A DNA stretch of 64,000 nt from Candidatus Bathyarchaeota archaeon. Its GTDB lineage: Archaea; Thermoproteota; Bathyarchaeia; 40CM-2-53-6. Positions 15,970 through 19,209 of the stretch are shown here, piece by piece. The DNA lies in contig CAVTBR010000002.1 in the NCBI GenBank assembly GCA_963733055.1, forward strand, positions 352,001-416,000, read 5' to 3'. The notes below the pieces were generated by a model. The model searched no databases. It saw only the letters and a program-made list of their open reading frames with translations, and was not told the DNA's origin. The translations under genes and the position numbers were made by a program. Every line of letters starts with the position of its first letter. The first letter of the stretch is position 1.

Positions 15970-17389
15970 CAGTGTTCACCTCGCTGAATTGAAGAAGTCC
16001 GTTCCTGTGAAGTTCGGTCACGGGCGTCGGCGGTCTCTTGCGCTCGTGCCTGATGCGGTAGTCCGCCAGCCTTCGGTAATCTTCCGAGACCTCAATGCCC
16101 AACCAATCCCTTCCAAGGTTCTCGGCGACCAGCCCGCTTGTGCCCGAGCCAAAGAACATGTCCAGCAGAATCCCTGGTCTGTGGCCTGCGCCGCAGCCGC
16201 AGTCAGTCCAGCCGACCGTCTTCTTGACAGGCGTCAAGATGTCTTTCTGCGGCATCTCCCGCTTGTCGCAGAACGCCCATGGATTGGTTCTTCGCTCGCC
16301 CCACTGCTGATTGACTTTGTCGATTGTCTCCACGATGCGGACTCTCGGCTTGCCACACTTCGAGCAAACCCACGCGGGACAGCCTGCGAGGATCAGTTGT
16401 TTGACGAGATCCTTCGGGAATGTTGCCGTGTGAGTGAGCCAGTCCGTGGCTCCGCAGGCGCACCGCCTCGTGAAGTGTTTCTTGTGCGCTCTCTCGCCCA
16501 CATCGCCGCGGTTGGGTCGTCTCAGTCCGCTGTAGTTCCTGGGTGGGGCTTCGACGGCTTCGAGCACGTCCCAGTCAGTCTTGGCGTAGACTTGCTTGCA
16601 TCGCTTGCAGAGCTGGTAGCCGAGCAGCGTGGGATTTGCCGTGATGACGTTGCGGGCGATTCTCCACAGGTCAGATGTCTCGGAGCTTCTCTCCTGCACG
16701 GCGAAGGTATCATAGTAGTAGTGCCCGGCCTTCGTTAACATATAGACGAATTCCCAGGTGTTCGTGCGGCGGTCCTCTGCGGACTCGGGTCTAGCGTTCC
16801 GCTTGACCCACGCAATTCGGTCCCTGAGATACCACCCATCCTTTTGGAGGGCGGCGACGAGCTTCTCTGGGACGAGACAGAGATCTTTGCCCTTGAGTCC
16901 GATGCCCGCACGGCCGTAAGGTCGGAGATAGTCGTCGCCTCTCCCGCCACCTCTGAAGTCCCCGCCAGGACTCCCTGAGCCGCAGTAGCAGTCGCCTACG
17001 TTCAAGTAGCACACGCCGTCGCTGCGCAGCTTCTGCCTCGCAATGCGAAAGACTTCGACGAGGTGCTCGACATAGAGTTCGACCGACGGTTCGATCCCCA
17101 GGGCCCCACGCCAAGCGCTGCAGATGTGGCAGAATTCTCCAGCGTCATGGGCGGTCCACTCGTGGACGCAGTGTGGGTTTCCGCCGAGCGCTTGGTTCTG
17201 CTCGCCGCCTGCGTAAAGGCGCTGCGAAAGATAGGGCGGAGAAGTGACTATGCAGCTGACGGCGTTGTCGGGCAGGGTCATCATCATCGTGGCAGCGTCC
17301 CCTTGTAGAATTCGGTTGACGGCGAGGGTTGCCGTCTCCGACATCAGTTCGGCGCCCCCTGTTCGAGCCCGTTGCCGTAGGTCGCCCAT
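15953..17389 (-). CDS. Site-specific DNA methyltransferase (N4-C/N6-A, beta class) with Zn-ribbon insertions
   Basis: TSPPY motif IV precedes DMFFGSGT motif I; CHIC, CKRC, CACG, CSKC and CGCG clusters; probable start MSETA at 17345. Confidence 0.92.
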   Translation of the reverse strand: MGDLRQRARTGGAELMSETATLAVNRILQGDAATMMMTLPDNAVSCIVTSPPYLSQRLYAGGEQNQALGGNPHCVHEWTAHDAGEFCHICSAWRGALGIEPSVELYVEHLVEVFRIARQKLRSDGVCYLNVGDCYCGSGSPGGDFRGGGRGDDYLRPYGRAGIGLKGKDLCLVPEKLVAALQKDGWYLRDRIAWVKRNARPESAEDRRTNTWEFVYMLTKAGHYYYDTFAVQERSSETSDLWRIARNVITANPTLLGYQLCKRCKQVYAKTDWDVLEAVEAPPRNYSGLRRPNRGDVGERAHKKHFTRRCACGATDWLTHTATFPKDLVKQLILAGCPAWVCSKCGKPRVRIVETIDKVNQQWGERRTNPWAFCDKREMPQKDILTPVKKTVGWTDCGCGAGHRPGILLDMFFGSGTSGLVAENLGRDWLGIEVSEDYRRLADYRIRHERKRPPTPVTELHRNGLLQFSEVNTDEREA

Positions 17390-19209
17390 CCACGGCGCTG
17401 TTTGCGTGCGAATAATTCCAACTTCTTCGAGTTCGGATACATCCTCTCGACGAGTCGGTAGGCGGCATCGGGCTTCTCGTTGCGTGTGACTCTCGGAGCT
17501 ACGATTACGGAGGGCGAGCGGTTCGCTGCGTTCGGAGTCTTGGGGTCTCCTCGGGTGGCGAGAAGAAGGTGCTCGTGGCGTGTTCGGAAATACGAGCCCC
17601 CGCTTACTTTACGCTGATCCCAGACTGCACCCGTGCGGTATTGGAAGCCCCACCGTCGAATGAGTTCGAGCCCCGATGCGAGCTGCGTGGCGGAAACCCA
17701 CACGAAGAGAACGCATTCGTCGCCGCAGATGTTTTGGATTGGCAGCGCTGACAGTTCCTCAAGCGTCATCGCGGTCGAGCTGGACTGCTCCGACATGCGG
17801 AACGGAGGGTCGGCGACTATCACGCCGTATTTTTCCTTGGGCAGCGGTGGCGTCTTGTTTTGCAGTTGGTGGCGGAGAAGTTCCCGCTTGGCGGCGACGA
17901 TGTTCGTTTTGCCAGCTCTGACCTCCGCTGCAAGGTCTGGTCGGGAGCTCTCTATTTTCTTGAAGTCTGAAACGTAGTGGCTGTTCACGCCGACTGTCTT
18001 TGCGGCGATGTCACGGGCTTTACCCTGCTGTTCCCGTGGTGGAAGTTTTTCCACTGCGGGCGGCGTGTTTCCCTTTTTCAGCGTTGAGAGTTGGCGCTCT
18101 TTTGCTTCCCGCTCTATCAGCGGCAAGATTTCGTTTGCAATAGCTGCCTTCTGTCCATCGGTGAGGTGGCGGCGCTTCAGGTTCATGCTGACGACGTGCT
18201 CGACGAGCGAGCCCTTCGCGTCCCATTCCACGAATTTCGGAGGTATGCCTAGTTCTCGGCAGGCTCGGAGCCTGTTCTTCCCGTCGATTACTCGTCCCTC
18301 GAATTTCTCGATAGGGACTGTCAGCCCGTGCTTCCTAATGTCTTTCTTCAGCGCATGGTATTCTTCTTCGCCCATCGGTGGGAACAGAATTGTCACTGCG
18401 TCGAGGGCGGGAAGGTTCTGTTGGCTGGCGATGCGCTGGCGGAACGCTTCGAGTCGGGCTCGTTGCGTGGTGGTCGCTGGGTTGAGCAGTCCGTTCCTAT
18501 TGAGCGCCGCCAGGCGGTTGATTGCGCCGTCGGGCAGCCCGTTGAAGCCGTTGGTCTTCTCGATGAACGCGACTCGGATTTGGTGTCTGCTCTTCCCGTT
18601 CGGAAGACAGTAGTTGCATTTAGTGCCGCACCAAGTGTCTTCTTTCCGACCCGTGAGCTTGACGCCTGGACGGTCTGCGGGACAGAGGAATTCATTCTCC
18701 GCCGCCTGGGCCTCGTCCTCGACAATCCGTGCGTAATTGTCTCTTGTCTTGTCAATCTTCGAGTCGTGAACGCCGCCGAACCTTTTCGTCACGGCGAAAT
18801 TAGGTAAGCGTTCGAGGGGCGTGAGGTCGAGGTGCAACGACTTGGTGTAGCTGAAGAATTTTACGTCGGGTAGGCGGCGGGCGACTTCTGCCCAGCTGTC
18901 CACGTAAGTTTGCGAATAGAAGTCCCCGCCGTCGTGGACACGAACCGCAAGAACCTTCATCTTCTTCAGGGCTTCGGTCATCCGCTCCACAAAGTCTGGT
19001 CTCGTGGACGCTTTCAGGTTCTCGGCGTCGGCGGCGACCACCGAGCTGAATTCCTTTTGGACCTTGCCGTAGTAGCAGGTCAGCAGGCACGTCGCCGCTC
19101 CTGGACACGTCGAGGGAACTGGAAGGCTCCACACCGCAATCGAGGGGGCGACCTTCTTGTTTCCCTTCGATAGGCTCAAGCGGGGCGGGGTTTCGGCGAC
19201 TACGTCCAT
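17344..19209 (-). CDS. GP88-like (Cys-rich, radical-SAM-like) + ParB + MT-A70 fusion protein
   Basis: GNKK...TCPGAATCLLTCYY, RVHDGGDF, SYTKS (GP88-like); IDGKNRLRAC, NLKRRHLT (ParB); ADPPF, HEHLLLA, KP, ELFAR (MT-A70). Confidence 0.88.
   Translation of the reverse strand: MDVVAETPPRLSLSKGNKKVAPSIAVWSLPVPSTCPGAATCLLTCYYGKVQKEFSSVVAADAENLKASTRPDFVERMTEALKKMKVLAVRVHDGGDFYSQTYVDSWAEVARRLPDVKFFSYTKSLHLDLTPLERLPNFAVTKRFGGVHDSKIDKTRDNYARIVEDEAQAAENEFLCPADRPGVKLTGRKEDTWCGTKCNYCLPNGKSRHQIRVAFIEKTNGFNGLPDGAINRLAALNRNGLLNPATTTQRARLEAFRQRIASQQNLPALDAVTILFPPMGEEEYHALKKDIRKHGLTVPIEKFEGRVIDGKNRLRACRELGIPPKFVEWDAKGSLVEHVVSMNLKRRHLTDGQKAAIANEILPLIEREAKERQLSTLKKGNTPPAVEKLPPREQQGKARDIAAKTVGVNSHYVSDFKKIESSRPDLAAEVRAGKTNIVAAKRELLRHQLQNKTPPLPKEKYGVIVADPPFRMSEQSSSTAMTLEELSALPIQNICGDECVLFVWVSATQLASGLELIRRWGFQYRTGAVWDQRKVSGGSYFRTRHEHLLLATRGDPKTPNAANRSPSVIVAPRVTRNEKPDAAYRLVERMYPNSKKLELFARKQRRGWATYGNGLEQGAPN

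Follow-up and report, generated by a model that had tools for sequence, protein, structure and literature searches.

A GP88-ParB-MT-A70 fusion protein in a bathyarchaeal integrated element suggests a radical-SAM-like partner for DNA methylases

Proteins that join a ParB CTPase fold to a DNA methylase are common, occurring in phages, plasmids and archaea, and the subset that carries a methylase of the MT-A70 family is enriched in archaea (PMC12704722). In two described heterodimers, METTL3-METTL14 and the ciliate MTA1-MTA9, a canonical MT-A70 protein is combined with a paralogue whose active-site loop is degenerate. DUF5131 (phage Gp37/Gp68, PF07505) is a curated subgroup of the radical S-adenosylmethionine (SAM) enzymes at RadicalSAM.org, where it shares megacluster 5 with spore photoproduct lyase (PMC9477430); in the literature searched, we found no published function for it. 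Here, we describe a protein that touches all three systems. It is encoded at positions 17344-19209, on the minus strand, of a 64,000-nucleotide stretch of a Candidatus Bathyarchaeota archaeon genome (assembly GCA_963733055.1, contig CAVTBR010000002.1, positions 352,001 to 416,000; hereafter, the window), and in its 621 residues a GP88 domain is followed by a ParB N-domain with a helix-turn-helix (ParB-N/HTH) and by an MT-A70 domain.

Like the fusions described in PMC12704722, this protein combines ParB-N/HTH with MT-A70 and belongs to a mobile element; it differs from them in adding GP88 at the N-terminus and in having an MT-A70 domain without the adenine-recruiting tyrosine loop. Judged from sequence, these two features are what is new here, set on a known type of ParB-methylase DNA-modification protein; the main text of that paper, supplements not counted, mentions neither GP88 nor radical SAM. 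The complete reading that we develop below, namely that the fusion is an intact multi-activity DNA-modification protein of an archaeal integrated element of ~38 kb, has in our estimate about an even chance of being right.

The open reading frame (ORF) is intact from its ATG start and encodes the three domains in frame, as a preliminary description made from the DNA letters had proposed. The GP88 domain (residues 1-245; 18475-19209, minus strand) is supported by the Pfam model PF17338, which matches residues 23-179 with E = 9e-32 and 111.2 bits against a gathering cut-off of 24.4, and by an AlphaFold2 (AF2) model. The MT-A70 domain (residues 456-621; 17347-17844, minus strand) is matched by PF05063 over residues 461-613 (E = 8.5e-27; 94.6 bits against a cut-off of 23.9), and this part of the fusion also matches METTL3 with E = 3e-16. 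Pfam, including its ParBc model, is silent on the middle of the protein, which is recognized as ParB by PHROGs (phrog_4715, E = 1.7e-12; phrog_12047, E = 5.8e-10) and by its modelled fold. Every motif that the preliminary description had listed was found where it had placed it: GNKK at residue 16, CPGAATCLLTC at 35, RVHDGGDF at 90, YTK at 121, CPA at 176, CGTKCNYC (CxxxCxxC) at 194 and DPPF at 467-470 (positions 17800-17811).

An orthologue from a different assembly, P0002, is also 621 amino acids (aa) long, has the same architecture and is 81% identical overall, with 92% identity in the MT-A70 domain, 81% in the ParB region and 73% in GP88. Furthermore, the public run X1, possibly from the source sample, contains contigs identical to the fusion gene, one of which spans GP88 into ParB, and run X2 of the same study contains contigs of a variant 90-99% alike that run across the point where GP88 ends and across the ParB/MT-A70 junction. 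These contigs leave parts of the gene uncovered; at the GP88/ParB and ParB/MT-A70 junctions, they have no indels. The stop or frameshift between GP88 and ParB that the preliminary description had allowed for is thus seen neither in the orthologue nor in the contigs, and the three-domain architecture is almost certainly genuine.

The fusion is also rare, as had been suspected. Word-indexed searches for GP88 together with MT-A70 returned only the window fusion and P0002, the MT-A70 hidden Markov model (HMM) matched P0002 alone among the best 150 of 3279 GP88 representatives, and a comparison of the full protein with genome contigs found no relative. Close relatives of the GP88 domain also occur in fusions with ParB by itself and with two further types of methylase.

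Could GP88 be a radical-SAM enzyme? In the canonical members of that superfamily, the cluster loop reads CX3CX2C and follows the first beta strand. The AF2 model of the GP88 domain (pLDDT 92.7, pTM 0.89) has strands alternating with helices, and when it was compared with 48,161 chains in the VIA structure-only search, ranks 1-16 were all radical-SAM enzymes (Z 5.3-6.9), as were 19 of the top 20. The best match was QueE (5tgs; Z 6.9, 151 residues, root-mean-square deviation 4.2) and the second was spore photoproduct lyase (4fhc; Z 6.7), which gave the longest alignment, at 172 residues. The other matches among the first 16 were two more QueE structures, viperin, SuiB, LIAS, PFL-AE, LipA, EpeE, Mmp10, ChlB, NifB, lysine 2,3-aminomutase, a radical-SAM methyltransferase and SkfB. 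Over 151-172 residues at Z 6.7-6.9, the model seems to resemble QueE and spore photoproduct lyase in having a partial alpha/beta barrel whose first strand is followed by a Cys loop; it differs from them in Cys spacing, is only 8-11% identical to them and shows no sequence-level match.

At the level of profiles, the GP88 domain points to DUF5131. When the GP88 alignment was compared by hhalign with 29 DUF5131 sequences drawn from archaeal genomes, the two aligned over 112 columns (Prob 84%, E = 7.4e-6) in a register that places C35, C41 and C45 of GP88 on the canonical CX3CX2C of DUF5131, GDF on sDLF and YTKS on LTKrP. Similarly, Pfam matched DUF5131 to 13 of 67 GP88 members (best E = 8.6e-5), DUF7227 to 10 (best E = 1.1e-6) and, weakly and below the cut-off, Radical_SAM (PF04055) to 3 (best E = 3.4e-4). 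The DUF5131 HMM also matched the GP88 genes of 11 viral loci with E = 1e-7 to 7e-4. Among BFVD models, the neighbours of GP88 include a DUF7227 protein (E = 6.7e-5) and a Gp37/Gp68-like protein (E = 2.6e-4), in agreement with the ESM Atlas. The core of GP88 thus appears homologous to that of DUF5131, and both are families of viral and mobile-element proteins with fusions to ParB; they differ in that GP88 reads Cx5-6Cx3C in place of CX3CX2C, forms a separate Pfam family and, in the window fusion, fails the DUF5131 model. GP88 is therefore probably a sister family of DUF5131 and not a member of it.

Several results weigh against a radical-SAM assignment. Every Z in the VIA search is below 8, in a range that can mirror a common arrangement; for models that lack a clear match, a best Z of 7-8 is typical. 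Foldseek found nothing for the GP88 model in the PDB at E <= 1e-3, its best matches being generic TIM barrels at E = 6e-3. The window fusion itself matches neither PF04055 nor PF07505 in Pfam, DUF5131 being absent even at E <= 10, and with single sequences hhalign gives a weak result (E = 0.01, Prob 4%). One such single-sequence alignment, to the DUF5131 protein P0054, covered 14 columns of the C-terminal Cys motif only and was dismissed as a trivial motif match. When the GP88 HMM was run against the stop-to-stop ORFs of its own genome, only the fusion itself was significant, none of the 10 Radical_SAM matches was recovered, and the genome's own DUF5131 gene was reached only at E = 22. The Cys spacing (Cx5Cx3C) is non-canonical, and the GGE motif reads GGD. 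For the preliminary description's proposal of an iron-sulfur (Fe-S), radical-SAM-like GP88, then, support comes from the fold and from the DUF5131 profile, and the direct Pfam tests failed; in its suggested comparison of structures, radical-SAM enzymes ranked first in VIA, at Z below 8, and Foldseek gave nothing at E <= 1e-3. Because of the fold matches and the profile comparison with DUF5131, we consider GP88 likely to be a divergent domain of the radical-SAM superfamily, and binding of an Fe-S cluster and of SAM would follow from this assignment.

The conserved residues of the family are consistent with an active site. When residues 1-245 were used for an exhaustive HMMER search, 3279 representative clusters matched at E <= 1e-3, mostly stand-alone proteins of ~200 aa, and viral contigs gave at least 592 matches; the gene is carried by mycobacteriophages, Streptomyces phages and archaeal viruses. 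Across 67 aligned members, C45, G95 and N137 are invariant, and N17, K19, P30, C35, C41, Y46, R90, H92, D96, T122 and S143 show conservation of 90% or more. The proposed [4Fe-4S]/SAM site, C35-x5-C41-x3-C45 (19075-19107, minus strand), rests on this conservation and on the DUF5131 alignment. A Cx4-9Cx2-4C-aromatic motif is found in 133 of 147 members. Among 150 proteins, the N-terminal spacing is Cx5Cx3C-aromatic in 87, Cx6Cx3C-aromatic in 38 and different in 16, the remaining 9 having no motif and probably being fragments; 8 of the 16 read Cx3Cx2C, which in our opinion is the C-terminal cluster. That cluster is made up, by motif position, of C176, C194, C198 and C201 (18607-18684, minus strand), and it contains the CxxxCxxC that the preliminary description had listed as a second cluster. 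It occurs in just 65 of the 147 members and therefore is not the core site of the family, a place that probably falls to the N-terminal loop; it might be an auxiliary cluster or a zinc site. In the literature searched, supplementary files aside, we found neither a function nor a radical-SAM assignment for GP88 or DUF7227. The name "gp88" is used there for the lysin A (also termed a late gene) of a different phage, and D29 gp88 appears merely as a PCR target; neither bears on function.

The central module (residues 255-460; 17830-18447, minus strand) was also modelled by AF2 with high confidence (pLDDT 90.8, from an alignment of 56 sequences). Foldseek returned 27 PDB matches at E <= 1e-3, and the 18 listed are all of ParB type (ParB, Spo0J, Noc, KorB), the closest among the matches listed being the ParB-N domain of archaeal pNOB8. 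G310 and R313 of the DGKNR motif and N343, R346 and R347 of NLKRRHL are invariant among the 56. The model thus has the ParB-N/HTH fold together with the conserved GxxR arginine motif, and a module of this fold would be expected to bind, and perhaps clamp, DNA.

The MT-A70 domain departs from the canonical enzyme in both triple fusions. Eight residues are missing right after motif IV, including the HY of the HYP(T/S)M loop, and RNEKP stands in place of HSEKP, with K and P retained and with the loss of an H and an S that are invariant in a paralogue-led alignment of 22 sequences. The deleted tyrosine aligns with the loop tyrosine of ciliate MTA1, and its METTL3 counterpart is Y406, the mutation of which abolishes activity while SAH (S-adenosylhomocysteine) binding is kept (bioRxiv 10.1101/2023.09.06.556513; see also PMC9512776). 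By these comparisons, the domain departs from the usual adenine methylase, and the preliminary description's reading of it as an adenine methylase is not supported in that form. Motif IV reads DPTF in P0002. In the window fusion it is an intact DPPF, which may allow residual or altered methylase activity. Between the orthologues, the domain is the best-conserved part of the fusion, which suggests that it has been kept for a non-standard role.

What might that role be? Only two MT-A70 genes are present in the genome, and the second, 10 kb from the fusion at 7574-8671 (minus strand), encodes a canonical ParB-MT-A70 paralogue of 365 aa (DPPY...HYPT...HSEKP; PF05063 E = 6e-26) that is 53% identical to the C-terminal part of the fusion and has an orthologue in P0004; for P0004, as for P0002, the longest contig is given as 82,106 nt. 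A model of the complex between the two MT-A70 domains scored an ipSAE of 0.82 compared with 0.00 for the best control; contacts agree to at least 99% across the three runs, and the partner has a pLDDT of 84 or higher. Of 80 solved complexes, 58 attain the mark used for this score, as do 2 of 110 mismatched pairs. Solved MT-A70 heterodimers exist, and the pass may therefore just reflect likeness to them; also on the cautionary side, the model does not distinguish a heterodimer from a homodimer. We propose that the fusion's MT-A70 domain may pair with the paralogue. Like METTL3-METTL14 and MTA1-MTA9, the archaeal pair would then consist of one canonical paralogue and one with a degenerate active-site loop, in a predicted pseudo-symmetric dimer that passes controls. 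It differs from them in being archaeal and borne by a mobile element, in carrying ParB on both partners and in the DPPF of the window copy.

If GP88 has radical-SAM-like chemistry, on what would it act? Because its closest relatives are fused or adjacent to ParB and methylases, DNA is the substrate that we infer. P0064 is a ParB-GP88 fusion and P0203 an N6_N4 methylase-GP88 fusion. In P0209, a GP88 with 52% identity to that of the window fusion is joined to a small FGGMG...DPPY class-I methylase-like domain; the protein is annotated at its source as a SAM-dependent methyltransferase, and its nearest Atlas clusters carry Methyltransf_11. The P0209 locus, from a Candidatus Bathyarchaeia metagenome-assembled genome (L134:7977-10844), has ~600 bp downstream a DUF5131 gene with 35% identity to the one in the window's element. 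In a genome of the same genus (G293; L011:4779-7106), the genes for a GP88 protein and for an N6_N4 methylase of 309 aa stand back to back, and in the Streptomyces phage Yaboi the gene immediately upstream of GP88 is ParB-like. DUF5131 itself is fused to ParB in P0054 and P0056. The GP88 protein of G293 is 385 aa long, with an unexplained N-terminal extension of ~180 aa, and two PIN-domain genes lie nearby. P0019, at one point counted as a GP88 and ParB fusion, was dropped, the ParB HMM giving no match.

The wider viral family does not follow this pattern. We surveyed 80 viral GP88 loci in 12-kb slices, counting ParB and methylase genes within 6 kb, and the HMMs found such genes near GP88 in only 3 of them (ParB, MT-A70 and N6_N4 once each); a crude motif screen of the same loci found none. 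The ParB HMM detects both annotated ParB genes of Yaboi and is therefore not blind. Consequently, the link to ParB and methylases is true of the archaeal GP88 subclade and not of the family at large, and this sparsity weighs against DNA as a family-wide substrate. The most frequent neighbours were the terminase large subunit (29 loci), WYL_2 (8), DUF932 (7) and a NUDIX-GNAT-VTC protein (6). The last directly adjoins GP88 in all six (e.g., L036:2704-4950), and P0094 is a VTC-GP88 fusion; part of the family may therefore have some connection with nucleotides or polyphosphate. For the terminase (17 + 12 of the 80 loci, L014-L093, at median distances of 1.2 and 3.0 kb) we make no claim, as a 12-kb slice of a 20-100-kb contig often includes it by chance and the loci are related. 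The GP88 genes of cluster A mycobacteriophages and of Streptomyces phages are found at a genome end.

The alternatives can be weighed on this evidence. The fusion could be an ordinary ParB-MT-A70 N6-adenine methylase to which GP88 is added as a metal-binding (Zn or Fe-S) appendage, structural or DNA-binding, with no radical chemistry. The abundance of ParB-methylase fusions and the archaeal enrichment of the ParB-MT-A70 type (PMC12704722), the intact DPPF, the moderate fold Z and the generic TIM barrels of Foldseek all suit such a protein. What it leaves unexplained is that the polar, active-site-type residues of GP88 are conserved (N17, K19, R90, H92, D96, T122, N137, S143), that GP88 is homologous to a family with the canonical CX3CX2C, that it occurs mostly as a stand-alone protein and that the tyrosine loop is gone from the MT-A70 domain; we therefore regard this explanation as unlikely. 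Nor does the loss of conserved MT-A70 residues make the fusion a decaying pseudogene, or an assembly or annotation artefact, for P0002 keeps the frame, the contigs of two runs cross both junctions without indels and the altered domain is also the one with 92% identity between orthologues; we consider either very unlikely indeed.

Two further alternatives accept the radical-SAM-like nature of GP88 and differ in what it does. Its substrate might be a nucleotide, RNA or protein, the fusion packing independent activities into a polyvalent protein. The NUDIX-GNAT-VTC neighbours and the P0094 fusion, the scarcity of ParB and methylase genes near viral GP88 and the fact that QueE, the top structural match, acts on a small molecule are in line with this, whereas the closest relatives, in which GP88 is fused or adjacent to ParB and to three types of methylase in four independent cases, are not, and on balance we think it decidedly improbable. 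Alternatively, GP88 might be a DNA-repair lyase that, like spore photoproduct lyase, reverses damage in the element's DNA and installs no modification. That enzyme is the second-best structural match, with the longest alignment, and is grouped with DUF5131 in megacluster 5 of RadicalSAM.org (PMC9477430). GP88 has, however, no sequence-level link to it, and methylase fusions suit modification better than repair, which makes a repair role very unlikely.

We return to the reading of the fusion as a DNA-modification protein and to its genomic surroundings. A methylase gene at 15953-17389 (minus strand; PF01555 E = 1.3e-27) is translationally coupled to the fusion, its start lying either within the fusion gene by 46 nt or where stop and start codons overlap as TGATG, as the overlap with a beta-class N4/N6 methylase in the preliminary description implied. 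Its product has a Cys-rich insert, with SPPY (motif IV) near the N-terminus and FGSG (motif I) near the C-terminus, the N6_N4 beta-class order. Upstream, an ORF of 140 aa (19200-19622, minus strand) overlaps the fusion start by 10 nt, and it is preceded by a Cys-rich ORF of 106 aa (19604-19924, minus strand); neither has a family in Pfam or PHROGs. These two small ORFs also overlap each other, and the four genes therefore form an apparent operon, of which the 106-aa ORF is the first.

By marker genes the genome is archaeal: it has Ribosomal_S8e, a family that was matched, among the controls, in the four archaeal ones only, and AmoA was found neither in the genome nor in the controls. The operon lies in an island with a GC content of 0.52-0.60 (mostly 0.54-0.60), which extends from ~17 kb left of the window start to position ~22,000 of the window, with dips to ~0.50 at 10-12 kb of the window and ~8-9 kb left of its start; the flanks are at ~0.46-0.50. 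At the GC step from 0.46 to 0.55-0.60 stands a tyrosine integrase gene (L124:2711-3865, equivalent to G000:C2:334711-335865; PF00589 E = 2.3e-15), which is likely the left end of an integrated element of ~38 kb. A comparison of the two flanks of the island gave no direct repeat resembling an att site at lengths of at least 14 nt. Besides the SPPY methylase and both MT-A70 genes, the cargo includes a full-length DUF5131 gene and, next to it, a TcmP gene, both ~3.5-5 kb to the left of where the window begins (L124:15028-16543, equivalent to G000:C2:347028-348543; E = 2.2e-90 and, for TIGR04474, E = 2.5e-22), so that the element carries two different radical-SAM-like genes. DUF5131 is often paired with TcmP. 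Between the methylase modules lie a DUF6338 gene (14904-15482, minus strand; E = 9e-12) and a weak DUF1286 match (13342-14010, minus strand). Pfam and PHROGs are silent on most other ORFs of the island, and no capsid or terminase gene was seen there. Within the class, GP88 occurs in 7 of 301 genomes, in 5 of them above the cut-off, a sporadic spread that fits a mobile gene. Just outside the right GC boundary, at 22039-23007 (plus strand), the window encodes a restriction endonuclease of the Mrr type that bears a zinc ribbon at its C-terminus (PF04471 E = 1e-22), and a second tyrosine integrase (56467-56949, minus strand, equivalent to G000:C2:408467-408949; E = 4e-14) is located far from the island.

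How might the parts work together? Lacking the loop that recruits adenine, the fusion's MT-A70 domain would most likely be a non-catalytic or altered subunit, and it might dimerize with the canonical ParB-MT-A70 paralogue much as METTL14 does with METTL3. The ParB/MT-A70 scaffold would carry GP88, the probable sister of DUF5131, to DNA, where a second, Fe-S/SAM-dependent chemistry could be added. The operon, including the coupled SPPY methylase, may thereby mark the DNA of the element, most plausibly for protection from restriction. That the product is a hypermodified base is a speculative and improbable extension, drawn from sequence and models. More broadly, GP88, DUF7227 and DUF5131 might together form a large, virus-wide clade of unrecognized DNA-directed radical-SAM enzymes, in which case a silenced MT-A70 and its active paralogue, loaded by ParB, could flip or hold a target adenine, and radical chemistry by GP88 there or on a neighbouring base could yield a new hypermodified base; this, too, we rate as a long shot.

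The placement of GP88 beside DUF5131 in the radical-SAM superfamily, together with the methylase and ParB fusions of its closest archaeal members, leads to a testable hypothesis, namely that mobile elements encode radical enzymes that act on DNA. The pair of a canonical and a degenerate MT-A70 in this element would likewise be a prokaryotic analogue of METTL3-METTL14.

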